Shown here in pieces: positions 30,411 to 62,291 of a stretch of 64,000 nucleotides of DNA. The translations under genes were made by a program, and so were the position numbers. Every line of letters starts with the position of its first letter. The first letter of the stretch is position 1. The notes beneath the pieces were generated by a model, which was given only the letters and a program-made list of their open reading frames with translations, was not told where the DNA came from and did no database searches. The stretch comes from Clostridia bacterium (lineage in GTDB: Bacteria > Bacillota > Clostridia > Oscillospirales > CAG-272), in NCBI GenBank assembly GCA_017621085.1, contig JAGATW010000028.1, positions 4,107-68,106 on the forward strand. Reading direction: 5' to 3'.

Positions 30411-30430
30411 AATGATAGGTTAGTTTTTTC

Positions 30431-30448: not shown

Positions 30449-30500
30449 AATTACAAAACTGATTATGCTAAGATAAAAGTGTAAAGCGGAGGTGAATACA

Positions 30501-31223: not shown

Positions 31224-31243
31224 ATTATTTGTGAAATGGCACT

Positions 31244-31307
31244 GTGGCGTGTGCTTGTATATATACAAGTGGCTCGGTTTCGCCTCGCCAATACAAGCAC
31301 ACGCCAC
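31244..31307. repeat. GC-rich nested palindromic element
   Basis: The 17-nt arm GTGGCGTGTGCTTGTAT (31244..31260) is exactly complementary to ATACAAGCACACGCCAC (31291..31307). An inner perfect palindrome CTTGTATATATACAAG lies at 31254..31269, and a TGGC...GCCA mini-stem lies between. Confidence 0.6.
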
Positions 31308-32693: not shown

Positions 32694-32694
32694 T

Positions 32695-33357: not shown

Positions 33358-34001
33358 TATAAGTTCTCCAAGAATTTTTGTAGCTTACGCGCCATTATAT
33401 CGTGTCCAAAATCATTTGGATGCAAGCCGTCAGGCATATATCTGTCGCACCATACCCGCATATTTCCATTCATTCCACTCTCCTTGTACATATCAAGAAC
33501 CGGAATTGAATAGTACTCACAAACATCTCTTATTGCTTGAACAAAGCAAACTAAATCACTTGATTTGCCACTCCAGCTAAATGCTTTTTCCTCCATTCTA
33601 TGAATAGGAGTCATAAATACTATTGTTTTACCAACATATTCTTTAATTAGGTATTTACAAAGGTGGTGCATTCCACCATAAAAGGTTGTAATGTCCTCGT
33701 TATCCATTGTTCCTAACGGAATTGTTGCGTGGCCATAATCGTTTGTGCCACCAAATACAACTACTATATCTGCATCCTTTTTCATTTCAGGTGCGCGAAG
33801 GTTAAAATCCTGGTCGAATGGGTCCTTGGTTACCTCTAACAGTCTTGCTATTTTTGTTCCGCTTTTACCATAGTTACGAGCTTCCTTTAAGCCCACATTT
33901 TTCTTTAATACTGCATGATAGATGTAATCAGGTCCACTTGTGCCAACACCCTCTGTAATACTATCACCTAAAAAATTAATTATCTTTCCCTTTAGCTCCA
34001 T
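33357..34001 (-). CDS. SGNH/GDSL hydrolase (first of three tandem paralogs)
   Basis: Blocks FLGDSITEG, VFGGTNDY and DGLHPN. Confidence 0.8.
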   Translation of the reverse strand: MELKGKIINFLGDSITEGVGTSGPDYIYHAVLKKNVGLKEARNYGKSGTKIARLLEVTKDPFDQDFNLRAPEMKKDADIVVVFGGTNDYGHATIPLGTMDNEDITTFYGGMHHLCKYLIKEYVGKTIVFMTPIHRMEEKAFSWSGKSSDLVCFVQAIRDVCEYYSIPVLDMYKESGMNGNMRVWCDRYMPDGLHPNDFGHDIMARKLQKFLENL

Positions 34002-47023: not shown

Positions 47024-48751
47024 TTATTCATAATAGCCACAAGCAAAGAGCCATTGGCTATTCTCAGCAGACTCGTATGGGATATCTCCTGTTTCAGCCC
47101 ATCCGTCTCCGTCCATAAACATAACCTGGTTTACAGAATATTTTTGCAAGAATTGACGTACCTCCTCTGTTACAGGAACAGCACCGTCACTGTTTGCAAT
47201 ATCGTGGTAGCCCTTGAGATTGGTATATGCCTCGTCAAGCTCTATATAGCCACCATATGTAGTAAGTGAGGATGATTGCGCGTGATTATAGCCCTCAACA
47301 AATAGCTTGTAGTTTTCCGTTCCGTTTGAAACGGTTAGCGCCTTGTTTCCTCGATATTCAATATTAATAAGAGCATCGTCAAGAATACCTGTTCTTGTAG
47401 CAACTGAAATATCAGCATATAATATTGGACCATAGCCAAAGCCATAACCGTTTTCAGAGTCATCGGTATACTTGGTTTCATCATATTTATGATAGAAGCC
47501 TGTTTTTTCATTATAGCGATAATTACTTTCAAGCAAAACTACCTTGCCGGAAATAGTTTCTGCCGGGGTTTGCCATGTTTTGCCCTTATCTAAATCGTAA
47601 TAGTGATTAAAATATCTTATTAAGTATTGATTTGCAAAATTATAGAGTAGTCTGTTTTCTTCTTTGTTGAAGAAAGCATTCATATAAAGCGCATCATTTA
47701 GATTACTCTCTGTTAAATCATGCATATTATAGTAAGCAAGCGGGTCATTTTCAAAAGCAGGATATTTTGCTATCAGCTCTTCCTTAGTATATGACCTTAG
47801 CTCTCTTAATCTATCAGACATTATAGCATAGATTTCATTTGGAAGCATATAATCTGACACTGCATGTTCAAGCTCAAAGCCACCCTCATACTGTACTGCA
47901 AAGTTAATTTGTGCCGGGAAATACTTATCGTTTCTTGCAGAGGTGTGAATGGCAAATATAAATACTACCTGTCCACCACCTGAGCTTGATATCATTTCCT
48001 CAGCTATTTCCACCTCATACTTAAAGTTCTTTGTATAGTTTTTGCCCTCTTTACCACCTGCATCTAAGGTGTAAAGGTAGTTAGGAGCAGCAAAGCTACT
48101 TGAATAAACGTCAATTTTTGGATTTACCTTATCGTCATAGGTTGACACCCAGGATTCAATTGTGTATGTGCCACTTTTTCTTGGCTTAAATTCATAGTAA
48201 ACCTTTTGATTATCGTTTTTCAAGGTTACACTATACATACTTGTTTCCTTAATTACCTTACGACTATATAAGCTATTTCCAGTACCTGTGGTAGTTCCTA
48301 TTGGGTATATATCCACGGTAATTTCAGGATTATCATTTGTTGCAATATAGATGTTAGGGTTATATGTATAGCCCTCTGGCATATTTTTAAGGGAAACACT
48401 ATAATCTCCGTCTAAACCAAGGGCTGTTGCATAGCCCTCATCATTTACAGCCGAATCAACAAAGGAAATTCCATCATTCCAATTTACGATAACGGGATTA
48501 GACTTATCAAAAGCATTAAATGGTTCTCCACTTAATGATAGATTTACCTTAAATACTATTTCATCTTCATCGTCCGGCTTTTCCGGTTTGTCGGGATTAT
48601 CTACATTGTCATTATTATCGCTTGAAGTAGTTGTATCAGGCTTTGAGCTTTCTGTACTACTTGGCGTGCCACTTGGATTTTCGGTATTGTCACATCCTAT
48701 GATTGCAAGCAAGAGGAGCATGGCTAAAATGGTTAAAAGTATTTTTTTCAT
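47024..48751 (-). CDS. Lipoprotein, 575 aa (paralog of 1800..3518)
   Basis: Lipobox LLLAIIGC followed by an S/T/D/P linker. Colinear with the copy-A protein. TAATG overlap with the upstream gene. Confidence 0.85.
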   Translation of the reverse strand: MKKILLTILAMLLLLAIIGCDNTENPSGTPSSTESSKPDTTTSSDNNDNVDNPDKPEKPDDEDEIVFKVNLSLSGEPFNAFDKSNPVIVNWNDGISFVDSAVNDEGYATALGLDGDYSVSLKNMPEGYTYNPNIYIATNDNPEITVDIYPIGTTTGTGNSLYSRKVIKETSMYSVTLKNDNQKVYYEFKPRKSGTYTIESWVSTYDDKVNPKIDVYSSSFAAPNYLYTLDAGGKEGKNYTKNFKYEVEIAEEMISSSGGGQVVFIFAIHTSARNDKYFPAQINFAVQYEGGFELEHAVSDYMLPNEIYAIMSDRLRELRSYTKEELIAKYPAFENDPLAYYNMHDLTESNLNDALYMNAFFNKEENRLLYNFANQYLIRYFNHYYDLDKGKTWQTPAETISGKVVLLESNYRYNEKTGFYHKYDETKYTDDSENGYGFGYGPILYADISVATRTGILDDALINIEYRGNKALTVSNGTENYKLFVEGYNHAQSSSLTTYGGYIELDEAYTNLKGYHDIANSDGAVPVTEEVRQFLQKYSVNQVMFMDGDGWAETGDIPYESAENSQWLFACGYYE

Positions 48752-51438
48752 TATGCTTTTCCTCCTGCCTTACTTTTTTTAAAAAAGCTCTTAATATCTG
48801 TCCATTTAAGCTTTCTTACAATTATGTCAATGACGAACAATACTATTGCTGCTACCATTAGTGGTATTGTGTAATAATAAATGTAGGTTTCAATTTCGCT
48901 TTCGTCATTTTCAATTTTCAAAGCTCCGTTTTCACTAACGTTGCCACTATTTCCAACGGAGTTATATAGAATTGCAGAGTCAAACAAATCAAATCTATTG
49001 TATTCAGATAGATATGATATGTTAAAGCTTGTGCTTCCTTCAAATACCTCTTCGCCAAAGATATAGTTAACGCTTACATCGTATTTGCCTATTTCACCAA
49101 CCTCAAAGGGTAGCTGATACAAGCCCTTTTCATAGTAAAGACGTGCAACTGTTTCCTTTCCATTCGGTGATGTTATTTTAACATCTACTACAACGTCAGG
49201 ATTATTTTCGGCAGGGATTACCTCTAAAACTGCTCCTGTATTTTCAACGGATACACCAATATTAAATGGATAGTCTAACCTTTCCTTTGGTGTATTGGTT
49301 GTTAATAATCCGGTTAAAACAGATGCTCCATTAGGGTCATTATACCAATTATCAATCCATTTTCCGGAAAAGGTGGTTGAAAGTGATGCTACTCGTCCGT
49401 TACCATAATTCCAATAAGAATAAAGTGGTACTAAAACAGTTTCTCCTGTTGGAAATTTATACTCAACATTTAAAACCGTGGTAGCATTTGATTTGGTAAC
49501 ACCAAAATAATATCCACCAATGTTCGGAAGCTCTAATATACCTTGAATTATTGGGTCCTCATAATCTTCAATAATTACAGGAATATCGCCCTCAATTAAT
49601 GTTTCTGTTATATCGTCTGCAATTTCTGTTGATACAACCTCAGATACCTCCTCGGGAGATTCAACAAAATAGTAATTACCACGACCGGCAGTTGCAATTT
49701 GCTTTAATAATTCTTGAGCGCCTGCTACTGTACTATTGGTATTGATGGTTGACACAGCAATACCTGATTTGCGCATTTGGGACACAATATTAATTGGGTC
49801 ATCCTTTTGGTCAACTGCAAGATATGTACGTCCGTCACTTATGAGTATAGCGTGCTTTTGATAGAAGGATTGATTTTCCATCATTTCCTTTGCAAGCTTT
49901 AAGCCTGCGCCAAGCACGGTGCCCTGTGTTGGTTGAATACCATTTATAGCTTGAATAATTGTTTCCTTATGAGCCACTGCTGTTGGCATTAGAGCCATGG
50001 AAGCATCACCCGATACGGAGAAAATTGCTACATAGTCCTGTGGGGACATTGTATTTAAAAGCTCAATTGCTGATTGCTTTGCCATTATAAGCTGATAAGC
50101 ATCCTGCATACTTCTTGATGAGTCGATAACTATACCGTATAGCTTAGGCTCGCCGCTTGTATTACCATACTGGATTGCCATCATATCCTTAAAGGCTGAA
50201 TACAAATTATTATCTTGGTTTTGAACAAAGGTATTACCGGCAGTTATTAAGCTTTTACCAAACTTGGATACTACTATGTCAAGATTTGAAATAAAGGCTG
50301 TTGCATTTTCAATTTCCTTTATATCTATGCTTGACAAAATAAATTCATCAAACTTACAAAGCTCCTCTATGCTATACGGCACAGGCTCTTTCTTTTTCAA
50401 TAGAAGCGGTGCATATATTTCAGCACTTTCACCATAAAGCTCTTCAGCTCTTGTTAAGTCAGCCTTTGTATTTGAAACAAGTAAAACCTTAATCTTTTCG
50501 TTTACTGTTTGAGTAAAGTAAAATTCGTTATTGTGCGGAGATGTATCGTGACTTGCATCAACCACGACCTTATAATCCTTTACTCCACCTGTAGTTGTAT
50601 CAAGGTCAATTGTTATTAGGTTAAAGCCCTTATGAAGTGGCTTTGATACCTCCTTCTTCATTACACCTGCTTCATCATACAGGCGAATAAAGGCATCATT
50701 TCTGTCCTTTTGATTTTCATCATTTGGAATATAATCAGTATTTGACTGAATTAATATCTGTAAAACGGAATCGTGGTTTAAATAGGTTGATTTAACATAA
50801 TCTACGCTATTAATTTGAACCTCGTATTCGGTGTCCTTTATGTTGCTATCAAGATAAATTGCGTCAACATAAATGTCCTGTGCCTCAAGATTGCTTATAG
50901 CATTTATAATTCTTGAAGCTTCAGTTGTCAAGGTTTCCTTACCGTCTGTTAACAAAACTATTCTTTTGATTGTGTTGCTTGAAAACATAGTTGATGCATA
51001 ATTTAGCGCACTTACTATGTCTGTTGCACTTGTATCAACCAAGGTATTCTTTACAGATGAAAACTCACCACCAAATTCAGTATTGATAGCATAATCTCTG
51101 CCGAAGCAAACTACACCTACCTTAGAATTGGCAGGAAGATTTTCCTTTTTAATCAATTCCTTTATGTATTCATCTGTTTTGTCAATGTTGCTATTTGTGG
51201 AGTAGGAAACATCGGCTACAATTAAAACCTCTGTTTCTGTTTTAACAGTTATTTTTTGTAGTCCTGCAAGGGCAAGTGCTACTAACGCCACCATTACGGT
51301 GTGCAATATTAATGTTGTAATTGTTGATTTGCTCTTATTCTCTTTTCTTATGGCAATTATGTACGGTACTACCAATAATGCCAGCATAGGAATGGCAATT
51401 AGCAACAAGTATGGATTATCGAAGCTGATACTTGTCAT
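48751..51438 (-). CDS. Membrane protein with BatA-type N-terminus and two vWA (MIDAS) domains
   Basis: N-terminus MTSISFDNPYLLLIAIPMLALLVVPY. MIDAS motifs IVADVSYSTN and IVIDSSRSM. C-terminal TM helix. 23-nt overlap with the upstream gene. Confidence 0.85.
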   Translation of the reverse strand: MTSISFDNPYLLLIAIPMLALLVVPYIIAIRKENKSKSTITTLILHTVMVALVALALAGLQKITVKTETEVLIVADVSYSTNSNIDKTDEYIKELIKKENLPANSKVGVVCFGRDYAINTEFGGEFSSVKNTLVDTSATDIVSALNYASTMFSSNTIKRIVLLTDGKETLTTEASRIINAISNLEAQDIYVDAIYLDSNIKDTEYEVQINSVDYVKSTYLNHDSVLQILIQSNTDYIPNDENQKDRNDAFIRLYDEAGVMKKEVSKPLHKGFNLITIDLDTTTGGVKDYKVVVDASHDTSPHNNEFYFTQTVNEKIKVLLVSNTKADLTRAEELYGESAEIYAPLLLKKKEPVPYSIEELCKFDEFILSSIDIKEIENATAFISNLDIVVSKFGKSLITAGNTFVQNQDNNLYSAFKDMMAIQYGNTSGEPKLYGIVIDSSRSMQDAYQLIMAKQSAIELLNTMSPQDYVAIFSVSGDASMALMPTAVAHKETIIQAINGIQPTQGTVLGAGLKLAKEMMENQSFYQKHAILISDGRTYLAVDQKDDPINIVSQMRKSGIAVSTINTNSTVAGAQELLKQIATAGRGNYYFVESPEEVSEVVSTEIADDITETLIEGDIPVIIEDYEDPIIQGILELPNIGGYYFGVTKSNATTVLNVEYKFPTGETVLVPLYSYWNYGNGRVASLSTTFSGKWIDNWYNDPNGASVLTGLLTTNTPKERLDYPFNIGVSVENTGAVLEVIPAENNPDVVVDVKITSPNGKETVARLYYEKGLYQLPFEVGEIGKYDVSVNYIFGEEVFEGSTSFNISYLSEYNRFDLFDSAILYNSVGNSGNVSENGALKIENDESEIETYIYYYTIPLMVAAIVLFVIDIIVRKLKWTDIKSFFKKSKAGGKA

Positions 51439-53284
51439 AGCAATACACCACCCAATCTGCCACCATAATTACAGCCAAGCAAATAAAGAATATTATGAGC
51501 TTATCGTATATGCCATCAAAGCCCTTTCCACTTGCTTCGCCAAGGAGGCTAATTTCGCCCTCGTTTTCTGTTACGGGGTCTTTTTCCTCATCTACCATTG
51601 CAGAATAGATATTGAAGCTTCTCGCCTGTCCTGCAATTGTTGCAGTAATTGTGTAAACACCCACCTCGTCAAGCTGAAATTCACTTATCATTTCTTTTGT
51701 GCTTAAGTGAGATATTTTACCTCTTGGGCTTTCTACACGAATGCTTTCGCAATTAGACACTATATTAATTTGCGCCTTGTCGCCACATTCATAAAAGGCT
51801 TCATCAATTACAGATGGGAATGAGAATTTTATAAGATTATTTACTAAAAATACATAATCTGCCAAAAGTGGCAAATCTGAATTGTGAAGGTCAAATGCAA
51901 ATACAACCTCACGGTTTCCATAGGTATTTACACCTGTGAATATTACCGGATTTCCTTCATGAGTGAACAATGTATCAAAATTACGATATGTATCGTACTT
52001 TGAGTACTTTGATACATATATTTCGTTTCCGTCCACATCACTCAAAAGCTTTCTTATAGTTGATGCACTTGCCTTTGTTTTTGATATTTTCTCTGCCTTA
52101 TCAAGCTTAATTTCACCTTGATAATTAAAGCCGGAATTTTCTATACTCGCGGTTGAATTTATTAGCCATACGCTACCATCATCCGGTACGGATTTTGGAT
52201 TACAGGAATGGAATACATATAAGCCATAGCCCTTGATTTCTCTTGACTTATTTTCTTCCTTTGTCAAGTAGTCATTAGGAGACATAACTGTTATGCTCTC
52301 ACTTCCTACACTCTTCAAAACTGTTTCTAAGAAAAATGGTGTTTGACTTACTAACAATGTTTTATAAGCATTTGCCTTATTCACGTTGTAAATAACGCTT
52401 TCGTTATCAAGTGCTAAAGCGTCACTATTAAGGATTTTGACTGTTGCACTATCAAAGCTTTCAACATACAAATCAAATGTAAATTTCTTTGCTACACCCT
52501 TTTGTACGCTTATTTCCTGTTGTGCGCTTTCATCTCCGGCATTTACCTGAAGATTAATTGTTGCGTCGCTTTCATAAGATGTTACATAACCACTAATGCT
52601 TAAGCTACCTAAAACAGAATAATCATATGTAACCTGTGACAAGGCATAGTTGTCCTTTTCGCTTGCTACATTTATTAGATGAATGTTCTTAGCCTCACTA
52701 TAGGACTTGTCCGTAACAAGATATGTAAGAGTACCCTTGTTTGCATCAAAATATGATTGCGCTTTAGACAAAGCAGTACTTACGTTTTGAGAGCCGAAGC
52801 CGGATTTTAGTTCATCTATAAGGAGCAAGGCATCATCTTTATCTGTTTCCTTTTCAAAAACAGTTGTGGTGTTATTATCAACACAGATAAGGGTATATAA
52901 GCTACCATTGCCTGAATCCTCAATGATTTCTTTTATTCTGTCCTTGCCTACCTCAAATCTTGACTTGTTATTTTCCATTTCCATACTCATGCTTCCACTT
53001 GAATCAAGTATGAAGCAATATTCATTTGCTCCATTTGGTATTGTAAACACCGGTTGAGCTATGGTTAAGGAAATAATAGCAATTGCCAAAATCTGCAAAA
53101 TCAAGCTAATAATACCTGTCAGCTTGTTGTCTTTTTTCTTTTTCTTTAAGAATTTTTCGCTAAGAGTCCATAGATAAGTAGCAGACACAGTTTGCTCTGT
53201 GTACTTGCTCTTAATTATGTAAATTAATACAAGAATTGGAATTCCTATTAATCCCAATAGTCCTAAGGGATACTGAAAGCTCAT
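51416..53284 (-). CDS. BatA-like TM-vWA protein (intact copy, 622 aa)
   Basis: N-terminus MSFQYPLGLLGLIGIPILVLIYII (aerotolerance-regulator N-terminal type). MIDAS motif FILDSSGSM. C-terminal TM helix LIIFFICLAVIMVADWVVYCY. Confidence 0.85.
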   Translation of the reverse strand: MSFQYPLGLLGLIGIPILVLIYIIKSKYTEQTVSATYLWTLSEKFLKKKKKDNKLTGIISLILQILAIAIISLTIAQPVFTIPNGANEYCFILDSSGSMSMEMENNKSRFEVGKDRIKEIIEDSGNGSLYTLICVDNNTTTVFEKETDKDDALLLIDELKSGFGSQNVSTALSKAQSYFDANKGTLTYLVTDKSYSEAKNIHLINVASEKDNYALSQVTYDYSVLGSLSISGYVTSYESDATINLQVNAGDESAQQEISVQKGVAKKFTFDLYVESFDSATVKILNSDALALDNESVIYNVNKANAYKTLLVSQTPFFLETVLKSVGSESITVMSPNDYLTKEENKSREIKGYGLYVFHSCNPKSVPDDGSVWLINSTASIENSGFNYQGEIKLDKAEKISKTKASASTIRKLLSDVDGNEIYVSKYSKYDTYRNFDTLFTHEGNPVIFTGVNTYGNREVVFAFDLHNSDLPLLADYVFLVNNLIKFSFPSVIDEAFYECGDKAQINIVSNCESIRVESPRGKISHLSTKEMISEFQLDEVGVYTITATIAGQARSFNIYSAMVDEEKDPVTENEGEISLLGEASGKGFDGIYDKLIIFFICLAVIMVADWVVYCYDKYQLR

Positions 53285-54165
53285 TTCAATACCTCCTTTT
53301 CTACCATCCTGCCAAAGAAGACATCGCCCATTGAGTCCTCAGATGATACTAATAGGTAATGTGCGCCTCTTGATGCACAAACATTGCCTATTCTTTCTTG
53401 AACATACTCAAGCGCTTTTCTGTACGCTTGCATTATATCCTTTTTAATATTCTTTCTGTAAATCTTTTCAGCAGATTCAGAGTCATACAAATGTACCTTA
53501 CCTCTGATTTTCGGATTAAGCTCGTCCGGCGACAAAACCTGAATACAGAACACATCTCTTTTCTTATCGGCTAAGTGGTTAATAGCACTTTCATAATCGT
53601 TATCTGTTAGAAAATCAGAAATAATTACCGACATACCATCGCCATAGCCAACGCTTGATGGAATAACGGCATCACTAATATAGCTATCTCCACTAAACTC
53701 TAAATCGTTTAGCTTGCCTATTTCGCCAACATAAGAGTCCTTTCCAACCATACCGGAAATAATTTCTATTATCTCCTTGTTACGTATAGCATAAATGGAA
53801 ACCTTGTCCATTTCGTTAAGAGAAAGGTATGCAACCGTTGCGGCAAGTCTTAGTGCTTGCTCTGCCTTATCGGCTCTACCATATTCCATTGAACGGCTTG
53901 CATCAATGTATATCTTGGTGTGCATTTGACGTTCGTCAAGATAAAGCTTTTGATAAAGCTTATCAAAACGAGCATATGCATTCCAATCTATTTTGGTTAT
54001 ATCATCACCCGGAATATAATCACGATAATCAGCAAACTCACAGGATGAGCCGAAGGTTTTACTTTGGTGAGTTCCACCAAACAAGCCTGCAACATTATTT
54101 TTAATAAGCGATTGCAATGCTTCTACCTGCTGTAAAAATTCCTCGTTGATTATTGAATTCTTCAT
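53281..54165 (-). CDS. DUF58 family protein
   Basis: Block FADYRDYIPGDDITKIDWNAYARFDKLY. 294 aa. 4-nt overlap with the downstream gene. Confidence 0.85.
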   Translation of the reverse strand: MKNSIINEEFLQQVEALQSLIKNNVAGLFGGTHQSKTFGSSCEFADYRDYIPGDDITKIDWNAYARFDKLYQKLYLDERQMHTKIYIDASRSMEYGRADKAEQALRLAATVAYLSLNEMDKVSIYAIRNKEIIEIISGMVGKDSYVGEIGKLNDLEFSGDSYISDAVIPSSVGYGDGMSVIISDFLTDNDYESAINHLADKKRDVFCIQVLSPDELNPKIRGKVHLYDSESAEKIYRKNIKKDIMQAYRKALEYVQERIGNVCASRGAHYLLVSSEDSMGDVFFGRMVEKEVLK

Positions 54166-54177
54166 TTTTGCTGACCT

Positions 54178-55161
54178 TTATTTCTTTTTTGTTTCTTTCA
54201 CAAGTAAATCAATTACATCATCAACAGTCAGCTTTTCATTTACGGCAGTATAATTGATTTTAATTCTATGTCTTAATACAGGACGTGCAAGTGCTTCGAT
54301 ATCCTCATATGAAACATTAAAGTTGCCATTTATGAGCGCTCTTACCTTAGCACAAGTAATTAATGCCTGTGCAGCACGTGGAGATGCACCGTATTTAATA
54401 TATTTCTTTGTACAATCAGGAGATTTTTCAAGCTCTGCGTGAGTGTTAGATACAAGCTTAACTGCATACTTAACAACATCATCAATAACCGGAACCTGAG
54501 AAGCAAGCTGTCTCATTTCAAGAATTGTAGGTCCATCTACAACTGCTTGAGCATTTTCATCAAGTGTGATTTGTGTCATGTTTACAATGTCAACAAGCTC
54601 TTCATCGCTTGGGAACTTCATTATTAGCTTAAACACAAAACGGTCCATTTGCGCCTCCGGCAATGGATATGTACCGTCCTGCTCAATTGGGTTCTCTGTT
54701 GCAAGCACAAAGAATGGCTCCTCAAGGTCATATCTATCGTTACCGACTGTTATTTTATGCTCCTGCATTACTTCAAGCATAGCAGACTGTGTTTTTGGTG
54801 TTGCACGGTTAATTTCGTCAGCTAAAACAAGATTTGCAAAAATAGGGCCTTTACGGAAGGAGCTTACCATTTTTCCTGTTGCATCCTTTTCAATTACATT
54901 TGTACCTGTAACGTCAGATGGCATAAGGTCAGGAGTAAACTGTATTCTTGAGAATGGTAGGCTAAGAGTTCTACCAAGAGAACGAACTAAACGTGTTTTA
55001 CCAACGCCCGGTACACCCTCTAAAAGAACGTTACCGCCTGCTATAATTGCGATTATTACATTATCTACGATTTCATTTTGACCTACAACGTCCTTGCGAA
55101 GCTCTGCTTTGATTAAGCTAACTGTTTCACTAAACTTTTTTACCTTTTCCATGTTTTCCAT
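54178..55161 (-). CDS. MoxR-family AAA+ ATPase
   Basis: Walker A GVPGVGKT and Walker B LVLADEINR. By eye, about nine of ten residues are identical to the copy-A protein. Confidence 0.9.
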   Translation of the reverse strand: MENMEKVKKFSETVSLIKAELRKDVVGQNEIVDNVIIAIIAGGNVLLEGVPGVGKTRLVRSLGRTLSLPFSRIQFTPDLMPSDVTGTNVIEKDATGKMVSSFRKGPIFANLVLADEINRATPKTQSAMLEVMQEHKITVGNDRYDLEEPFFVLATENPIEQDGTYPLPEAQMDRFVFKLIMKFPSDEELVDIVNMTQITLDENAQAVVDGPTILEMRQLASQVPVIDDVVKYAVKLVSNTHAELEKSPDCTKKYIKYGASPRAAQALITCAKVRALINGNFNVSYEDIEALARPVLRHRIKINYTAVNEKLTVDDVIDLLVKETKKK

Positions 55162-55184
55162 ATCATTAATTTCCTTTACTTTTC

Positions 55185-56675
55185 TTAATTTTGACCACCT
55201 TGAGGTGTTATTAGTACCGAATAATACTTCCTCAAGATTTCAGCTAATTCCTCAGAAATTTCGCCATTGCGTAGCATTTCTGTAATTTTGGATTCGTAAT
55301 TTGCAATAACCTCACCATACTGAACGTTTATGTTGTCAACGTTTCCAGCCGGCTCTTTGTCCTTGTCTATAACTATATCGTCACTACCAAAAATATTTCC
55401 ACCTGCACCGTATCCACCGTCTTCACCAACTTCCGGTCTGTCCTCCGGCTCGGTAGTTTCAAAATCATCATTTTCGTCGGTTTTTTCCTTAATATCATCC
55501 TCGGTAATACCGAATATACGCATAAGCTCGCTTACTACACGGTCTTTTACGTCATTATTGACTTTTTCCTGTGGTATAATCTTCTTAAGCTCACCAATCG
55601 CTGTACGATTAAAAGCTTCATCAATTTTAGAAAGAATGTTTTCATCTGTATATGTTCTTTCAACAATCAGAGTTAATGAGTCGTTTAGTGCTTTCAGCAC
55701 TCCATACAGTCCATCTTCCTCGCCAAGTCCCGAGTTACGAATAATTGCACCTAATTCATCATTAAAATCTGCAATGTCATCCTTGCTGCCGCCAAGCACA
55801 AACAAGCCTGAGCTAATTGATACGAACTCAGTTTCAATTACACTCATATTCAAGCTATATAAGGCAAGACTAAGCTTCTTTATGCTACTATTTGAATTAT
55901 CCTTAGCAAGCATATGTACTTTAAATGTTGAGCTGGCTCCATTTACATGGGCACGCACCGCTTTGATTACACCAACTACATATTCCTTCATTTGAGATTG
56001 CATTCTCAAATTATCAAGCTCTGAAAGCAATACATTCAGCTCGGATAGAACATTTGCCTTAACGTCAGCCTGCATATTTGATTTTTCAACCTCTTGAATT
56101 AAAGCCTCAAGAGCGATTCTTTGATGGTCGGTAGGAGTAAACTCCTCATCCTCATCATCCTCACCACCCTGTTGGGTGTCATCACCCGGGTCATGTGTGG
56201 GGGTATTCTCCTCACTTTTAAATGCTACAACTATGGCTGTAACAAGGTATGCTGCACAGATAACAAGAGCAACAAAAAAAGCAACTAATCCTTTTAGCAA
56301 GCCAAGCATATTGGTTGGTTTGCTATCGAGGATTTTTATTGCATCCTCTCTTTGAAGAAGCTTAATATCTCCATCGTCATCCAAAAAGGCGTGCATTGTT
56401 TGAATTTTTTCTCTTAAGCCATATGTATTATCAAGCTTTTTTGCCAGCTTTTTATCATTTGGCTTGAGAACAAAAAACGTGCCAAGTCCTAAAAGTAATC
56501 CAAAAGCAACACCTGTAAGAACTGCGTAAACCATATTAAAGTCAAGCTTTTTAAGCGTGGTTACAATTAGGAAGGTTGCAACGACAAGTAAGACGGCACA
56601 GATGCCTGTAAGAATAGCCTTTATAACAGCATCTAACACATATTTTTTCTTAAAGCGTTTAAAGCTCTCACCCAT
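55185..56675 (-). CDS. Three-TM membrane protein with an acidic helical C-terminal domain (first gene of the copy-B operon)
   Basis: The ORF track start is 56693. AAAGGAGGA lies inside that extension, so the ATG at 56675 or 56678 (MGESFKRF, compare copy A MGEGFKRF) is the likelier start. Confidence 0.75.
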   Translation of the reverse strand: MGESFKRFKKKYVLDAVIKAILTGICAVLLVVATFLIVTTLKKLDFNMVYAVLTGVAFGLLLGLGTFFVLKPNDKKLAKKLDNTYGLREKIQTMHAFLDDDGDIKLLQREDAIKILDSKPTNMLGLLKGLVAFFVALVICAAYLVTAIVVAFKSEENTPTHDPGDDTQQGGEDDEDEEFTPTDHQRIALEALIQEVEKSNMQADVKANVLSELNVLLSELDNLRMQSQMKEYVVGVIKAVRAHVNGASSTFKVHMLAKDNSNSSIKKLSLALYSLNMSVIETEFVSISSGLFVLGGSKDDIADFNDELGAIIRNSGLGEEDGLYGVLKALNDSLTLIVERTYTDENILSKIDEAFNRTAIGELKKIIPQEKVNNDVKDRVVSELMRIFGITEDDIKEKTDENDDFETTEPEDRPEVGEDGGYGAGGNIFGSDDIVIDKDKEPAGNVDNINVQYGEVIANYESKITEMLRNGEISEELAEILRKYYSVLITPQGGQN

Positions 56676-56713
56676 CATTGTTCCTCCTTTCATTTTTTAT
56701 AATATTATTTATT

Positions 56714-56742: not shown

Positions 56743-56904
56743 GGCGAAAATTACAAAATATACTTTTTTCCACTTTTTTAGACAAAAATGTAAAAATATG
56801 ACGATGGATTTCTTTTTCATCAATTTTGAATTCTCGTTTAACTTTTTGTCGTGAATAGTTTTGTTTCAGTTTAGCATCGTTTTGTAAAATTGTTAAAAAT
56901 AATA

Positions 56905-56933
56905 TTGATAAAATTGTAAATGTGTGTTAAAAT
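56905..56933 (+). promoter_or_regulatory. Predicted promoter of the copy-B two-component/plsY operon
   Basis: TTGATA, 17 nt, TAAAAT, with extended TGt. Confidence 0.45.
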
Positions 56934-56963
56934 GTTAATCTATCGTAAATAAGGAGGGATTAT

Positions 56964-57638
56964 ATGTTCAACATACTGGTAGTTGACGACGACAAAAACA
57001 CTCGTTTGTTTCTAAAGGCAGTTTTAGAGGATGCCGGATATACTGTTTATACTGCTAACAACGGAGTTGATGCATTAAACGTTATGGATTCTGAGCATGT
57101 TGATTTAGTTGTGCTTGATGTTATGATGCCGATTATGGATGGCTATGAGCTTACCAAAATTTTGCGTCAAAGCCAAGATAATCTTCCTATACTTATGATT
57201 TCCGCAAAGCAGCTTCCCAAGGACAAGCATATGGGCTTTTTAGCAGGAACTGACGACTACATAACCAAGCCAATTGATGATGAAGAAATGCTGTATAGAA
57301 TCAAGGCACTTTTGCGTCGTGCAAAAATTGCAAGCGAGCATAAAATTTTCATTGGTGATGTTGTATTGGATTATGATTCATTAACTGTAACTAAGGGTAG
57401 TGAGATAATGGAGCTTCCTCAAAAGGAATTTTTGCTTTTATTTAAGCTTCTCTCATATCCCGGCAAGATTTTCACACGCATACAATTAATGGACGAAATA
57501 TGGGGTGCTGATAGCGAAACCGGTTGGGAAACTGTAACCGTACATATTGGCAGGCTGCGTAAAAGGTTTGAAGGCTGGGATGAATTTCAAATAGAGGCTG
57601 TTCGTGGTCTTGGCTACAAGGCGGTGAAAAAGCAATGA
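56964..57638 (+). CDS. OmpR/PhoB-family response regulator
   Basis: Start MFNILVVDDDKN follows AAGGAGGGA. Same motifs as the copy-A regulator. Confidence 0.9.
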   Translation: MFNILVVDDDKNTRLFLKAVLEDAGYTVYTANNGVDALNVMDSEHVDLVVLDVMMPIMDGYELTKILRQSQDNLPILMISAKQLPKDKHMGFLAGTDDYITKPIDDEEMLYRIKALLRRAKIASEHKIFIGDVVLDYDSLTVTKGSEIMELPQKEFLLLFKLLSYPGKIFTRIQLMDEIWGADSETGWETVTVHIGRLRKRFEGWDEFQIEAVRGLGYKAVKKQ

Positions 57639-58705
57639 AATACACAAACAAAAAAGATCAAAGCAACATAAGAAGACTAACCCTTATATTTTCTTTGATT
57701 GTTTTGGCTGTTCTTATTGTTGTTTTGGGACTTTCCTCTTTAGCGGCTTTTATACTAATTGAGGTAGGAGTTATTTCTCCCGAGGAGGGTATAGGCACAT
57801 CTCATATTATTTTATTTATGGCAATATCAAGTGTAGCCCTTGGTACTATCATATCAATCATTGCAAGCAAAATGATTTTAAGCCCACTTAATATGGTTAC
57901 ATCAAAAATCAAAAGCCTTGCAAATGGTAATTTTGGAACAAGAGTTGATTTTGATGAAATTGTTAGTCGTATGCCTTCTTTTTTAGAGCTTTCAACTGTG
58001 TTTAACAAGCTCTCCGAGGAGCTTCAAAACACTGAAATGCTACGAAGCGATTTTATTAACAACTTTTCTCACGAGTTTAAAACACCTATTGTTTCAATTG
58101 CCGGCTTTGCAAAGCTACTGAAAAAAGGAAATTTGACAGAGGAGCAAAAGGAGCAATATATCACTGCTATTGAAGAAGAGTCTATGCGACTTTCCTATAT
58201 GGCAACGAATGTATTAAATTTAACCAGAATCGAAAACCAATCTATTCTTTCCGATGTTACAGAATTTAATGTATCAGAGCAAATTCGTTCCTGTATTCTT
58301 CTTTTAGAGCCGAAATGGTCAAAAAAGAAGCTTGATTTTCAGTTTGAGCTTGATGAATACACCCTTGTTGCAAGTGAGGAGCTTTTAAAGCAAGTGTGGA
58401 TTAATTTAATTGACAATGCAATTAAGTTTTCTAATGACAGTGGTACTATTTCTATAAACGCTATTGAAAAAAAGAATGCTTTGTCTATTTCCATAACAAA
58501 TTACGGCTTTGATATTCCAAAGGAAGCTATTCCAAAGCTTTTTAACAAGTTTTATCAAGCAGACGCTTCACACTCAACCGAAGGCAACGGAGTTGGGTTG
58601 GCTATTGTAAAAAAGATAGTAGATTTACATAATGGTAGCATAAAGGCTACAAGCGAGAATTTAGCAGTCACCCTTACCGTTACCATGCCGAAAAATATAT
58701 ATTAG
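57635..58705 (+). CDS. Sensor histidine kinase (intramembrane-sensing type)
   Basis: ATGA overlap with the response regulator. H-box FSHEFKTPIVSI, N-box NLIDNAIKFS and G-box GNGVGLAIV. Confidence 0.9.
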   Translation: MKYTNKKDQSNIRRLTLIFSLIVLAVLIVVLGLSSLAAFILIEVGVISPEEGIGTSHIILFMAISSVALGTIISIIASKMILSPLNMVTSKIKSLANGNFGTRVDFDEIVSRMPSFLELSTVFNKLSEELQNTEMLRSDFINNFSHEFKTPIVSIAGFAKLLKKGNLTEEQKEQYITAIEEESMRLSYMATNVLNLTRIENQSILSDVTEFNVSEQIRSCILLLEPKWSKKKLDFQFELDEYTLVASEELLKQVWINLIDNAIKFSNDSGTISINAIEKKNALSISITNYGFDIPKEAIPKLFNKFYQADASHSTEGNGVGLAIVKKIVDLHNGSIKATSENLAVTLTVTMPKNIY

Positions 58706-58717
58706 GAGATAACTTGA

Positions 58718-59404
58718 ATGAATAGTTTATTAAAGGCTTTAATATGCATAGCATTAGGCTATTTTATTGGCACGATTAATCCTTCATATTTGATTGCTAA
58801 GATAAAGGACTTTGACATAAGAAAACGTGGTTCCGGTAATGCAGGGGCATCAAATGCACTAATTGTTTTTGGCAAGGCTGTTGGCATTTTTTGTGCGCTT
58901 TTTGATATTTACAAGGCGTGTCTTGCAATAGAGCTTGCAAGACGTGTGATTTTCCCCGATTATAGTCTTGCTTTCATTATTACAGGCACAGCTGCAATCA
59001 TTGGACATATGTACCCATTTTATATGAAATTCAAGGGTGGCAAGGGACTTGCTTGTCTTGGTGGTGTTGTTTTGATGTATGACTGGAAATTCTTTTTAAT
59101 TCTCTTAGCAATTGAAATCATTGTTGTTCTTGCAACTGACTACATATGCTTTGTTCCTATGACTGCATCTATTATCTTCCCTATTGCGTATGGTATTTTT
59201 GAAAAATCCTTTCATAGCGCTTGCATTTTCTTGTTTGCAACTGTATTGATTTTGTTTAAGCACGCAGAAAACATTATTAGAATCAGAAACAAAACAGAGC
59301 TTCACTTTAGCTACCTTTGGAACAAGGAAAAGGAGCTTGAGAGAATGAATGAAAGTGATGTCAACATAGATGTTTCTAAGGATAATGAGGAAAACAAAAA
59401 ATAA
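58718..59404 (+). CDS. plsY: PlsY-family glycerol-3-phosphate acyltransferase paralog
   Basis: Blocks GSGNAGASNA, KFKGGKGLACLGG and HAENIIRIRNKTE. Starts 12 nt after the kinase stop, with AGGAGA upstream. Confidence 0.8.
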   Translation: MNSLLKALICIALGYFIGTINPSYLIAKIKDFDIRKRGSGNAGASNALIVFGKAVGIFCALFDIYKACLAIELARRVIFPDYSLAFIITGTAAIIGHMYPFYMKFKGGKGLACLGGVVLMYDWKFFLILLAIEIIVVLATDYICFVPMTASIIFPIAYGIFEKSFHSACIFLFATVLILFKHAENIIRIRNKTELHFSYLWNKEKELERMNESDVNIDVSKDNEENKK

Positions 59405-59410
59405 TTTTTT

Positions 59411-59442
59411 GAGGATGAGGCGAATTTTGTCGTTTTATCCTC
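59411..59442 (+). terminator. Hairpin between plsY and the lipid kinase gene, copy B (terminator or attenuator)
   Basis: Stem GAGGAT / ATCCTC followed by TTTTTGTTTATTTTTAGTTTATTTTTGTG. An extended -10 (TGgTAATAT) follows near 59480..59488. Confidence 0.45.
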
Positions 59443-59511
59443 TTTTTGTTTATTTTTAGTTTATTTTTGTGTTTTATTATGGTAATATAGATTCTTTAAG
59501 GAGATGATAAT

Positions 59512-60384
59512 ATGGGCAAGATTTACGCACTTTTTAACCCTCTTTCAGCAAATAAATCAGGTGAAGAAAAGGCAAATAAGCTAATTGGCTTTTTTCCTGG
59601 GGAGGATATTGATTTTGTTGATATTACTAAGATTAACAATTATAAATCCTTTATTGATTTTTTAGAGTCTGATGATAGAATTGTAATTTGTGGTGGAGAT
59701 GGCACAATAAATCGTTTTGCAAATGAAATTTTTGATTTAAAAATAAAAAATGAAATTTTATACTACGCAACCGGATCAGGCAATGATTTTTTACGTGATT
59801 TAGAAAAAAATGCTGAAGATGGTCCTGTTTCACTAAACGAGCATTTAACAAATTTGCCTGTTGTAACTGTTAAAGGTAAAGATTATCGTTTTATTAATGG
59901 AATTGGCTATGGTATTGATGGCTATTGCTGTGAGGTTGGAGATAAGCTAAGAAATTCTTCAGCTAAATCAATAAACTACACATCTATTGCAATTAAGGGA
60001 CTTTTGTTCCATTATAAGCCTACAAATGCTACTGTTTATGTAGATGGTCAAAAATATGAATTTAAAAAGGTATGGATTGCACCAACTATGGTAGGTAGGT
60101 TTTATGGTGGTGGCATGATGCCTGCACCTAAGCAAAACAGAAACGATAGATGTGACCACGTTTCTCTTTCATTGCTTTATGGCTCAGGTAAATTGAAAAC
60201 CTTAATGATGTTTCCTTCTCTTTTTAAGGGTGAGCATGTTAAATATAAAAACCATGTTGCTATATTTACCGGAAAGAATATTACCGTTGAATTTGACAGA
60301 CCTGTTGCTTTGCAAATTGATGGCGAAACAATTCTTGATGTTTCAAGCTACGAGGTTAAATTAGGAGTACACGCCAAAATATAA
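59512..60384 (+). CDS. Diacylglycerol-kinase catalytic-domain lipid kinase
   Basis: Motifs ICGGDGTINRF, YYATGSGNDFLRD and LQIDGE. Confidence 0.8.
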   Translation: MGKIYALFNPLSANKSGEEKANKLIGFFPGEDIDFVDITKINNYKSFIDFLESDDRIVICGGDGTINRFANEIFDLKIKNEILYYATGSGNDFLRDLEKNAEDGPVSLNEHLTNLPVVTVKGKDYRFINGIGYGIDGYCCEVGDKLRNSSAKSINYTSIAIKGLLFHYKPTNATVYVDGQKYEFKKVWIAPTMVGRFYGGGMMPAPKQNRNDRCDHVSLSLLYGSGKLKTLMMFPSLFKGEHVKYKNHVAIFTGKNITVEFDRPVALQIDGETILDVSSYEVKLGVHAKI

Positions 60385-60387
60385 GCT

Positions 60388-60418
60388 AAAAAGCACACTA
60401 TGACTTTAGTGTGCTTTT
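60388..60418 (+). terminator. Terminator after the copy-B lipid kinase gene
   Basis: Stem AAAAGCACACTA / TAGTGTGCTTTT. Confidence 0.75.
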
Positions 60419-60501
60419 GCTTTAACTTGTATTGACATTACACTAAAAAAATGATATTATTAAAGAGTAAATTTTCATCATAGTAAACACTTGGAGGAAT
60501 T

Positions 60502-61638
60502 ATGAATTTTACAGATGTTAAAAGGCTAATTGATACAATGCCCTTGCGTGGAATACCGTTTTTTGAGCTAATCGTTACCAAGGATGGAAATGAGGTTTTC
60601 AGACACAGGGTCGGCTATTCTGACGGAAAACAGGAAAAGCCATTTAAGGAAAATGATTTATATTGGCTTTTTTCCACATCAAAGCTAATAACCTGTGTTT
60701 GTGCTATGAGGCTTATTGATAATGGTATTATTAAGCTTGATGACCCCGTTGCAAAATACATTCCTTCCTTTGCAAATTTAACCGTAAGACAAGCAGATGG
60801 TACAACTACTCCTTGTAAGACTGTAATGACTATTGAGCATCTGTTTACTATGACCTCCGGTATTGGTCCTGACCATGAGGATAGAAGGAATTTAAATAAA
60901 ATTCTTGATAAAAATCCAAACGCTACTACTCTTGAGCTTGTCAGCAGCTTTGCAAGCGTACCACTATATTTTGAGCCGGGAACAAGGTATCAATATGGCT
61001 TTAGTCATGATACTTTGGCGGCTGTTGTTGAGGTGGCAAGTAATACACGTTTTTCTGAATACGTACAAAAAAATGTTTTAGACCCACTTAATATGACTGA
61101 CACAGGCTTTAGACCTACAGTTGAGCAAAAAGCGCGCTTTGCATCAACGTATAGATATGATAATTCCAACGGCACAAGTGTTTTAATTCCTACAGAAAAC
61201 AGATACGCTATTACTCCTAATTATGATAGTGGTGGGGCAGGTCTTTTTAGCTGTGCCCAAGATTATATTAAATTTTTAACAGTACTTGCCTGTGGTGGCA
61301 CAACAAAGGATGGCTATTGCCTTTTAAGTGAAAATGCTATAAAGCAAATGGAAATAAACCGTCTTTGCAAGGAAGCTTTAAGCGACTTTGTTAATGGAAG
61401 ATTGCATGGCTATGGCTGGGGGCTTTGCGGAAGAGTTCACATTAACCCTGTATATTCCCTTTCAAAATCAGCAGTTGGTGAATTTGGTTGGGATGGGGCT
61501 GCCGGATGCTTTTCTATGGTTGATAGAAAAAACAAGGTTGCTATTTTCTATGGAATGCAGGTACATAATTGTACATATTCTTATATCATACTTCAACCAC
61601 TTATTCGCACCTTGGTTTATAAGGCATTGGAGGACTAA
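60502..61638 (+). CDS. Serine hydrolase of the beta-lactamase/PBP4* (class C-like) family
   Basis: SxxK motif FSTSKLIT. Typical length. RBS GGAGGA. Confidence 0.7.
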   Translation: MNFTDVKRLIDTMPLRGIPFFELIVTKDGNEVFRHRVGYSDGKQEKPFKENDLYWLFSTSKLITCVCAMRLIDNGIIKLDDPVAKYIPSFANLTVRQADGTTTPCKTVMTIEHLFTMTSGIGPDHEDRRNLNKILDKNPNATTLELVSSFASVPLYFEPGTRYQYGFSHDTLAAVVEVASNTRFSEYVQKNVLDPLNMTDTGFRPTVEQKARFASTYRYDNSNGTSVLIPTENRYAITPNYDSGGAGLFSCAQDYIKFLTVLACGGTTKDGYCLLSENAIKQMEINRLCKEALSDFVNGRLHGYGWGLCGRVHINPVYSLSKSAVGEFGWDGAAGCFSMVDRKNKVAIFYGMQVHNCTYSYIILQPLIRTLVYKALED

Positions 61639-62247
61639 ATGGTATTTTATCTTGTAACAATTTTTATTTCAATGGTTATAATAGCAGTAGCTAACGCACT
61701 TGTTGTTCCCTTTGAGATTAGCAATTTTTTGTGGATTTTCTTAAATGTGACTATTGGTACGGTGGGCGTTATTGCTATTGATGGCCTTGGTGCTTTTCTT
61801 GTACGCAGAGCATTACCGGAAAAATGGTTTTTACCACAAAAAAAGCTATTTACTGTTTCAAAAAAGGAGCATAACTTTTATAAGGCTATCAAAATTAAGG
61901 CTTGGAAGGACAAGGTGCCTGAGCTTGGTATGTTTACTGCATTTAGTAAGAGTGAATTTAAAAGCTCAAGTGATAAAAATTATTTAAAGAGATTTATAAT
62001 TGAAAGCAACTATGGTGTTATTTGCCATTTACAAAATGCTATTTTGGGTTTTTTGATTTTGTTTATTCCATATATTAACGGAACAAATGTAGTATTTCCT
62101 TGTTATGCTTCTATTTGGGTTCCTATTTTTGCTGTAAACTTTATTCTCAGTATGCTACCTGTGTTTATTTTAAGATACACAAGCTATACTCTTTTAAGAC
62201 TTTACGAAAAACAGCTTAAGAAGGAAGCACAATTGCAAGATATGTAA
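61639..62247 (+). CDS. Small polytopic membrane protein, weakly reminiscent of CrtO-type glycosyl-carotenoid acyltransferases
   Basis: 202-aa ORF starting 1 nt after the upstream stop. The block FYKAIKIKAWKDKVPELG...IIESNYGVICHL resembles my recollection of the CrtO family. This is unverified. Confidence 0.4.
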   Translation: MVFYLVTIFISMVIIAVANALVVPFEISNFLWIFLNVTIGTVGVIAIDGLGAFLVRRALPEKWFLPQKKLFTVSKKEHNFYKAIKIKAWKDKVPELGMFTAFSKSEFKSSSDKNYLKRFIIESNYGVICHLQNAILGFLILFIPYINGTNVVFPCYASIWVPIFAVNFILSMLPVFILRYTSYTLLRLYEKQLKKEAQLQDM

Positions 62248-62261
62248 GCTTTTAAGCAATT

Positions 62262-62291
62262 AAAAAGCGTCGCTCAAAGCGACGCTTTTTT
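62262..62291. terminator. Bidirectional terminator
   Basis: AAAAAGCGTCGC-tcaaa-GCGACGCTTTTT. Confidence 0.8.

Follow-up and report, generated by a model that had tools for sequence, protein, structure and literature searches.

A duplicated four-gene module that may place a PlsY-family acyltransferase and a lipid kinase under an intramembrane-sensing two-component system in an uncultured Oscillospirales lineage

PlsY makes lysophosphatidic acid from acyl-phosphate, and DagK-type kinases recycle diacylglycerol to phosphatidic acid; both steps are usually viewed as constitutive housekeeping. In a stretch of 64,000 nucleotides from a Clostridia bacterium (Oscillospirales, CAG-272; assembly GCA_017621085.1, contig JAGATW010000028.1, positions 4,107 to 68,106), referred to below as the window, genes of both families stand behind a two-component system, in a module of response regulator, histidine kinase, PlsY and lipid kinase that occurs twice (copy A, 11700-15111; copy B, 56964-60384; open reading frame map and Pfam/NCBIfam scans). 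The explanation that we favor, at a probability of roughly 0.55, is a lineage-specific duplicated regulon: an intramembrane two-component system would autoregulate the operon that contains plsY and activate the lipid kinase gene through a second copy of its binding box, raising lipid synthesis or recycling upon membrane perturbation. The observations behind it are the gene content and junctions, hairpins, the conservation and specificity of a direct repeat, and the way the arrangement varies among relatives; statements on regulation and enzymology are drawn from sequence throughout.

Gene junctions, terminators and a direct-repeat box

The regulator and kinase genes overlap in both copies, by ATGA in copy B (57635-57638) and by GTGA in copy A (12371-12374), as had been proposed when the DNA was first inspected (the original prediction). 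The same prediction placed plsY in one unit with the two-component genes, and this holds as well: the kinase and plsY genes share a TAATG overlap in copy A (13451-13455), and in copy B they are separated by a 12-nt gap (58706-58717) with AGGAGA ahead of the plsY ATG. Judged by these junctions, the two-component genes and plsY are one translationally coupled unit. The longest open reading frames of copy A start too early, and alignment to copy B places the regulator start at ATG 11700 and the lipid kinase start at ATG 14233. Between the copies, protein identity ranges from 44% (the first membrane protein of the neighboring operon) to 91% (MoxR); within the module it is 83% for the regulator, 74% for the histidine kinase, ~65-66% for PlsY and 62% for the lipid kinase. 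Because of this divergence, A and B are, on their protein sequences, old paralogous blocks and not assembly duplicates.

The lipid kinase gene had been described as following the plsY unit. It does so, and shares the putative regulator box described below, but plsY ends at a terminator-like hairpin and the lipid kinase gene has a separate promoter, both within a spacer of 105-107 nt in A and B. Hairpins are found at the same place behind plsY in four loci (A, B and the relatives L017 and L023), with z from -5.3 to -6.6; their sequences differ and the structure is the same, which is the pattern expected of a real terminator. No RNA family was matched in an Rfam scan of the window, and the spacer holds no known riboswitch or leader.

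A direct repeat, GTTTA-N6-GTTTA, stands before both units and is probably the binding box of the regulator. In its exact form it occurs three times in the 64-kb window (0.35 expected), before the regulator gene of copy A and before both lipid kinase genes. The box before the copy B regulator gene has the position and geometry seen in copy A and in the relative L008. Across seven loci, the repeat is followed by 11 nt and then TAnnnT in 13 of the 14 regulator and lipid kinase promoters, at a distance of 42-54 nt from the start codon, or 91-93 nt in the case of B-type regulator genes. Nine loci without the module gave no match to the repeat. A search of the whole window with one mismatch allowed returned 14 sites where 9.5 were expected, which is no enrichment, and the evidence for the box is restricted to exact or positionally conserved sites. 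An 11-bp-periodic repeat that replaces the -35 element is the classic layout of activator-dependent promoters of the OmpR/PhoB type.

Two regulator-dependent units are thus predicted, one running from the regulator gene through the kinase gene to plsY and its terminator, the other consisting of the lipid kinase gene alone. Since the direct-repeat box of the regulator promoter also precedes the lipid kinase gene, this gene would belong to the regulatory unit of the two-component system, an arrangement kept in both copies and in relatives.

A further sequence, GTTTTATTTCAGTTTA at 21740-21755 (+), matches the box of the copy B regulator gene except for one base. Two minus-strand glycoside hydrolase genes (GH2 and GH123) flank it, and no gene lies downstream of it on the plus strand; the match is probably due to chance, but it could drive an antisense transcript.

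The sensor and the two lipid enzymes

The regulator (receiver and winged helix) and the kinase (HisKA and HATPase_c), encoded by adjacent overlapping genes, make up a two-component system of the OmpR type. Hydrophobic segments of the histidine kinase lie at about residues 14-43 and 57-82 and leave a loop of 13 residues between them. We took an intramembrane-sensing kinase to have two transmembrane (TM) helices, an extracytoplasmic linker of fewer than 25 residues and no periplasmic sensor domain. The topology fits this type, as originally suggested, and since no more than ~13 residues join the two TM helices, the kinase most likely picks up its signal inside the membrane. Conservation is lowest in the loop, where 23% of columns are invariant, against 73% in the second TM helix; the HAMP-like linker, too, is highly conserved. 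Neither the kinase nor the regulator reached an NCBIfam equivalog, and their relatives in the PDB are generic.

How does this compare with other membrane-linked two-component systems? DesK of Bacillus subtilis, a five-TM HisKA_3 kinase, has a regulator of the NarL type as its partner and a desaturase under its control. As in DesK-DesR and in LiaFSR/SapRS-type systems, the module would bring lipid-remodeling genes under a two-component system that senses the state of the membrane, and we know of no operon of these types that contains plsY or a DAGK-family kinase. Two-component control of membrane remodeling has also been described in enterococci (PMC13123819). SaeRS of Staphylococcus aureus comprises an intramembrane kinase and a regulator whose site is GTTAA-N6-GTTAA (PMC5083920). 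It resembles the module system in the two TM helices with a very short linker, in the OmpR-family regulator and in the direct repeat with 5-bp half-sites and a 6-bp spacer; in contrast, the sequence similarity is generic to OmpR/HisKA proteins, the predicted targets in the window are lipid enzymes rather than virulence factors, and the binding site is putative here. The open-access literature searched contained no description of a two-component operon containing plsY, in line with the original remark that a phospholipid-synthesis arm under such a kinase beside a Bat-like operon was not known to be described.

The window PlsYs belong to PF02660 (145.2 bits in B and 144.0 in A; gathering score 24.1) and lie marginally above the cut-off of the NCBIfam equivalog TIGR00023 (138.9 and 138.3 bits; cut-off 137.2). 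The alignment to Aquifex aeolicus PlsY (PDB 5XJ5), which to our knowledge is the only structurally characterized PlsY, extends over 192 residues (E = 2.7e-21) and is gap-free through motif 1. With this enzyme of the PlsX/PlsY/PlsC pathway they share the fold family and the acyl-phosphate site, the "phosphate hole" being kept (Thr41 as Ser45, His92 as His97, the GGKG of loop 3 as G107-G108-K109-G110). The clamp for the phosphate of glycerol 3-phosphate (G3P) is incomplete: Ser35, Lys104 and Asn180 are kept as Ser39, Lys109 and Asn185, but Arg45 has become Ile49. Of the binders of the G3P 2-OH, His177 is kept as His182 and Ser142 has become Pro147. In this way both copies deviate at two of the six residues that contact G3P. 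The window PlsYs also differ from the A. aeolicus protein in the C-terminal extension HFSYLWNKEKELER, in the near-cut-off TIGR00023 score and in being encoded in a two-component operon instead of a housekeeping context.

The two replaced residues matter in the A. aeolicus enzyme. Arg45 is part of the clamp that grips the phosphate of G3P and occurs in 92% of 7,288 homologues; R45A raises the Km for G3P 36-fold and lowers kcat/Km about 3190-fold, R45K costs >90% of the activity and S142A 70%, and T41S retains activity (PMC5700162). The original remark that all three PlsY signature blocks are kept is literally true and misses the functional point, and it is unsafe to assume that lysophosphatidic acid is made from G3P.

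The substitutions are shared by many relatives. Of the 120 closest homologues, 115 carry a hydrophobic residue at position 45 (111 Ile, 3 Met, 1 Leu), the other five not matching the motif pattern, and about 100 of the nearest 150 clusters at 50% identity, taken from an exhaustive search of 1.84 billion representatives, have Ile, Leu, Met or Val there. We compared 144 Arg-type sequences (Arg at 45 by definition) with ~110 non-Arg representatives, which are hydrophobic at 45. Position 35 is Ser in 100% of the former and Ser (61%) or Thr (35%) in the latter; position 36 is Gly in 96% of the former and Lys, Arg or His in 35% of the latter; position 41 goes from Thr (100%) to Ser (68%), and position 142 from Ser (96%) to Thr (51%), Pro (24%) or Ser (10%). 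His92, Lys104, His177 and Asn180 are kept in both groups alike, and many members of the Arg-less clade carry an extension like HFSYLWNKEKELER. By these residue patterns the window PlsYs sit in a distinct, large and diverse clade with a remodeled acceptor pocket, of which no description was found in the open-access literature searched. Because this clade is without the clamp Arg45 and without Ser142, G3P acyltransferase activity of the window PlsYs is not assured.

Arg-type and Arg-less PlsYs are both found in metagenome-assembled genomes (MAGs) labeled Oscillospiraceae/Ruminococcaceae and Lachnospiraceae; the NCBI accession numbers of the two types are >10^4 apart, and no pair among those compared could be traced to a single MAG. 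An Arg-type PlsY from Oscillospiraceae (L024) does not stand in a der-plsY-gpsA cluster. More than one PF02660 gene per genome is also known from Lactobacillus johnsonii, where plsY1 and plsY2 are induced by exogenous fatty acid, with condition-dependent expression; unlike the present case, that work describes no dedicated two-component system, linked lipid kinase or altered G3P pocket (PMC11625735). In a Lachnospiraceae MAG (L011, 8638-11453), an Arg-less PlsY (Ile at 45, 42% identical) is convergent to a histidine kinase/response regulator pair that is 29-34% identical to the window's, which may be a coincidence or an independent association of PlsY with a two-component system.

The lipid kinase has the two-domain architecture of DgkB, YegS and BmrU. 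It scores above threshold for DAGK_cat (46.0 bits in B and 40.3 in A, against 23.6) and YegS_C (55.1 in B and 64.1 in A, against 27), and GGDGT, GxGNDF and the C-terminal DGE are invariant in the lipid kinase alignment, with the two-domain fold present. GGDGT was correctly noted in both copies; the GTGNDF also attributed to both is found in A and reads GSGNDF in B. For TIGR00147 (YegS/Rv2252/BmrU) the scores of 66.4 bits (B) and 77.0 bits (A) stay below the cut-off of 118.65, so that the label "DagK-type" applies at the superfamily level and not beyond it. A 20-sequence profile matched BmrU (E = 1.5e-8) and DgkB (E = 2.5e-6). DgkB recycles diacylglycerol and has a role in tolerance to envelope-acting agents (PMC7864038). 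A metagenome scan with a kinase alignment returned matches of ~30% identity and no orthologues. On these scores the lipid kinase appears distantly related to DgkB, YegS and BmrU, as a divergent subfamily.

An AlphaFold2 (AF2) model of the copy B lipid kinase (predicted local distance difference test, pLDDT, 86.2) was compared with known structures by Foldseek, whose matches included SphK1, BmrU, DgkB and YegS (E = 2e-17 to 1e-12). The best match was human sphingosine kinase 1 (SphK1; template-modeling score 0.73-0.76, E = 2e-17), against 0.60-0.66 for BmrU, DgkB and YegS; acylglycerol kinase (7cgp_B) was also among the matches. In hhalign, the profile aligned with human SphK1 over the N-terminal domain alone, at a probability of 45%; sequence identity to sphingosine kinase is 13-14%. 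The window kinase thus differs from DgkB, YegS and BmrU in staying below TIGR00147, in having a eukaryotic enzyme as its nearest fold and in the dedicated putative regulator-box promoter of its gene.

Distribution among relatives and genomic surroundings

Exact copies of the copy B proteins are found on metagenome contigs from herbivore guts. The nearest species-level MAGs, Clostridia bacterium RGIG4287 (roe deer colon; PlsY 91%) and Oscillospiraceae bacterium SIG635 (PlsY 79%), keep the whole arrangement, which was seen in the loci L006, L008, L009 and L023. Two loci depart from it. L017 (PlsY 66%) has regulator, kinase, PlsY and lipid kinase without a MoxR operon within 3.9 kb upstream, where a NUDIX gene and unrelated genes stand instead; L022 (lipid kinase 69%) has the MoxR operon, regulator, kinase and lipid kinase without plsY, with a gap of 93 nt between the histidine kinase and lipid kinase genes. 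Because one locus does without the MoxR operon and the other without plsY, the invariant core in the loci compared is the two-component system with the lipid kinase.

The clade is narrow, with roughly 17 PlsY and ~21 lipid kinase clusters at 90% identity. A scan of a genome collection with PlsY B returned five loci, its peptide patterns being too specific. Outside the clade, other Oscillospirales have each of the two enzymes as a stand-alone gene (PlsY at ~62% identity in L005 and L018, lipid kinase at ~60% in L013-L016), in unrelated, housekeeping-like neighborhoods such as dnaX-recR, yajC-rimM-trmD and the ATP synthase operon. Across the sequences searched, the module is conserved and confined to a narrow uncultured lineage of about 17-22 protein clusters at 90% identity.

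As originally noted, the module is divergent in both copies from an operon of MoxR (AAA_3), DUF58 and BatA/VWA genes, which was found on the minus strand (Table 1). The operon resembles the Bat/MoxR operons of Bacteroides (aerotolerance) and Borrelia (BB0170-0176; PMC5700661) in its MoxR AAA_3, DUF58, BatA N-terminal and VWA domains and further VWA proteins. It differs from them in beginning with a membrane protein of ~500 residues that belongs to no family and in its adjacency to a module of two-component system, plsY and lipid kinase, which is unreported for those operons and non-obligatory here. The first gene (9965-11431 and 55185-56693, minus strand) encodes ~490-500 residues with N-terminal TM segments and an acidic tail. 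It matched no Pfam or NCBIfam family, copy B giving a sub-threshold score for LPG_synthase_TM (24 bits against 33.4), and no gene of the block evolves faster (44% identity between A and B).

Table 1. Positions of module genes, neighboring operons and predicted regulatory elements in the window
Feature	Copy	Position	Strand	Remarks
Response regulator	B	56964-57638	+	OmpR/PhoB family, 224 residues; Response_reg 1.5e-29, Trans_reg_C 9.8e-18
Histidine kinase	B	57635-58705	+	intramembrane type, 356 residues; 2 TM, 13-residue loop, HAMP-like linker, HisKA, HATPase_c
PlsY-family acyl-phosphate acyltransferase	B	58718-59404	+	PF02660 G3P_acyltransf; Arg45-less clade (Ile49, Pro147); C-terminal extension HFSYLWNKEKELER
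Soluble lipid kinase	B	59512-60384	+	DAGK_cat/YegS_C superfamily, 290 residues, divergent subfamily
Response regulator	A	11700-12374	+	start corrected (longest open reading frame from 11613)
Histidine kinase	A	12371-13453	+	GTGA overlap with regulator gene
PlsY-family acyltransferase	A	13453-14127	+	Arg45-less clade; TAATG overlap with kinase gene
Lipid kinase	A	14233-15111	+	start corrected
Putative box before regulator gene	B	56858-56873	+	GTTTT-N6-GTTTA, 1 mismatch; 11 nt, then TAAAAT 56885-56890
Additional sigma-70-like promoter between box and regulator gene	B	56905-56933	+	TTGATA-17-TAAAAT, TG
Putative box before lipid kinase gene	B	59448-59463	+	GTTTA-N6-GTTTA; 11 nt, then TATTAT 59475-59480
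Putative box before regulator gene	A	11643-11658	+	GTTTA-N6-GTTTA; 11 nt, then TATGAT 11670-11675
Putative box before lipid kinase gene	A	14168-14183	+	GTTTA-N6-GTTTA; 11 nt, then TAAAAT 14195-14200
Intrinsic-terminator-like hairpin after plsY	B	59411-59442	+	13 bp and U-run; -18.1 kcal/mol, z = -5.3
Terminator-like hairpin after plsY	A	14127-14167	+	U-run; -23.8 kcal/mol, z = -6.6
Terminator-like hairpin after lipid kinase gene	B	60389-60418	+	
Terminator after lipid kinase gene	A	15114-15143	+	
Divergent MoxR operon	B	47024-56693	-	502-residue membrane protein, MoxR (AAA_3), DUF58, BatA/VWA, 2xVWA, 575-residue protein; promoter 56742-56714
Divergent MoxR/DUF58/VWA operon	A	1800-11431	-	promoter 11497-11469

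Downstream of copy B only, a separate unit (60432-62290) runs from a near-consensus promoter (60432-60460) to a strong terminator (62262-62290), with no regulator box in front. It comprises a beta-lactamase-family serine hydrolase gene (60502-61638) and a CrtO-like membrane acyltransferase gene (61639-62247). Both genes also lie beside the B-type module of L023 (PlsY 76%), and L022 has the beta-lactamase-family gene without the CrtO-like one.

Elsewhere in the window, a low-GC (0.32) cluster at 28600-31250 contains three Xre-type helix-turn-helix (HTH_3) regulator genes, with or without tetratricopeptide repeats, and its content varies between samples (L025-L027). Tandem GDSL-lipase genes lie at 32046-34001 on the minus strand, three of them in the window; two 99.9%-identical contigs (L025 and L026) carry one extra copy, pointing to recent copy-number variation. 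The surroundings (16102-18279, 40659-43553 and L001 from 19275 onward) encode CotH, BspA-type leucine-rich-repeat and dockerin proteins together with GH2, GH3, GH123 and fucosidase genes, a gene content that suggests a glycan-degrading organism, possibly with cellulosome-like structures. A mobile element or defense island was considered and rejected: the flanking genes are ordinary and the Pfam scans run revealed no recombinase or tRNA, no search dedicated to tRNAs or mobile elements having been made.

Competing explanations and implications

In the regulon that we propose, the intramembrane-sensing kinase and the OmpR-family regulator would sense the state of the membrane, and the phosphorylated regulator would bind GTTTA-N6-GTTTA in the place of the -35 element, 11 nt upstream of the -10 hexamer. 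Because the box precedes both units, the regulator-kinase-plsY unit would be autoregulated and the lipid kinase gene separately activated. The predicted output is more of the PlsY-family, acyl-phosphate-dependent acyltransferase and of the lipid kinase with its DAGK/sphingosine-kinase fold, and in this way stress on the membrane would boost the synthesis or recycling of lipids of the lysophosphatidate/phosphatidate type. Predicted in this scheme are the function of the repeat as a binding site for the regulator, the sense in which the genes are regulated, the nature of the signal and the substrates of the enzymes.

Several observations weigh against it. Both the repeat and the genome around it are AT-rich, and the conserved sequence could be an UP-like promoter element instead of a regulator site, and an ordinary sigma-70 promoter also precedes the copy B regulator gene. 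With its acceptor pocket altered, PlsY may yield a product other than lysophosphatidate, and the SphK1-like fold of the kinase model may be taken as a lead on the type of substrate (a single-chain lipid?), not as an assignment. PlsY and lipid kinase homologues at ~60% identity are stand-alone genes, and the module genes might be the only copies of the lineage. Finally, the placement of A and B 45 kb apart on one replicon or genome is that of the present assembly: the A side is matched by L006 (99.95% identical) and the B side by L001 and L025 (99.5-99.9%), separate and independent metagenome contigs that end or diverge at ~29.5-30.2 kb of the window, inside the Xre-type cluster, and metagenome contig look-ups found none that bridges the two.

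Does the module instead serve the MoxR operon? The original prediction saw in it a signal-controlled phosphatidic-acid supply unit with a physical and probably a regulatory coupling to a membrane-embedded MoxR/vWA/lipoprotein machine. A dedicated arm with functional as well as regulatory ties to the divergent MoxR/DUF58/vWA machine might, for example, provide lipid for its assembly. The coupling of a two-component system to lipid enzymes stands, the G3P acyltransferase assignment is uncertain, and the coupling to the MoxR operon we consider improbable. The linkage is present in six arrangements. Divergent adjacency is kept in both copies and in L006, L008, L009, L022 and L023 despite protein identities of 44-91%, and the intergenic region is shared; yet in L017 the four genes occur without the operon. 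The MoxR operons have near-consensus sigma-70 promoters of their own with an extended -10 (TTGACA-17-TAAAAT, 11/12, and TTGACT-17-TAAAAT, 10/12). The box lies 120-150 bp away from these, oriented and placed for the plus-strand promoter, and neither exact nor one-mismatch searches of the window found a second box near the minus-strand MoxR promoter. Since the operon has its own near-consensus promoter with the box this far off, its co-regulation with the module is not supported by the cis-elements. On present sequences the MoxR-DUF58-BatA/VWA operon looks like a frequent but non-obligatory neighbor with a constitutive-type promoter, not an integral part of the module. It is also conceivable, though we doubt it, that PlsY and the lipid kinase are simply the cell's normal, here duplicated, genes for phospholipid synthesis and diacylglycerol recycling, set beside a two-component system by chance and forming no special arm, the label of an "extra" PlsY in the original prediction being a presumption. 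Their closest relatives outside the lineage are indeed single genes beside core genes, the two window PlsYs (65%) are about as distant from each other as module PlsYs are from stand-alone ones (58-65%), and neither the window nor any of the loci fetched contained a canonical plsY. Chance accords poorly, however, with the translational coupling of plsY to the kinase gene and with a conserved box immediately before the lipid kinase gene that is restricted to loci with the module. The loss of plsY in L022 is hard to square with a sole essential copy unless another plsY lies elsewhere, and Arg-type PlsYs do exist in MAGs labeled Oscillospiraceae/Ruminococcaceae.

Alternatively, the module might be an inducible system for the salvage or detoxification of membrane-active single-chain lipids, in which PlsY acylates another, or a differently bound, acceptor and the kinase phosphorylates monoacylglycerol or a long-chain base. 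The replacement of Arg45 by Ile and of Ser142 by Pro, with correlated changes at 35, 36 and 41 across a large clade that keeps the acyl-phosphate site, would agree with this, given the cost of R45A in the A. aeolicus enzyme, and so would the closeness of the kinase model to SphK1, the intramembrane nature of the sensor and the source in herbivore gut, which is rich in lipolysis products. Nevertheless, we think this unlikely: three of the four phosphate-clamp residues (Ser, Lys104 and Asn180) and His177 are kept, so that a phosphorylated acceptor is still likely, many clade members have Lys or Arg at 33 or 36 that could compensate, PlsY and kinase are unlinked outside the lineage, and sequence identity to sphingosine kinase is as low as 13-14%, with hhalign aligning the N-terminal domain alone. 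More speculatively, and with little expectation that it will prove correct, the whole Arg45-less/Ser142-less clade (~100 clusters, widespread in Clostridia) could be acyl-phosphate-dependent acyltransferases for an acceptor other than G3P, which in this lineage would form, together with the SphK-like kinase, a sensor-induced route turning membrane-toxic single-chain lipids into phospholipid precursors. Free fatty acids would enter such a two-enzyme route, which we regard as a long shot, via acyl-phosphate, and monoacylglycerols or long-chain bases via the kinase.

The regulon that we favor over these alternatives is a lineage-restricted variant of envelope-lipid regulation, for each element of which precedents exist. 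If true, it would be a compact natural case in which the entry steps of phospholipid synthesis or recycling are under direct control of a sensor embedded in the membrane, and with a simple predicted operator and no more than two promoters in the predicted regulon, it would be easily testable. PlsY is pursued as an antibacterial target, and genome annotation calls all proteins of the Arg-less clade "G3P acyltransferase". A changed acceptor specificity, or another mode of binding G3P, would thus be of consequence to enzymologists and to those who reconstruct the metabolism of gut Clostridia.

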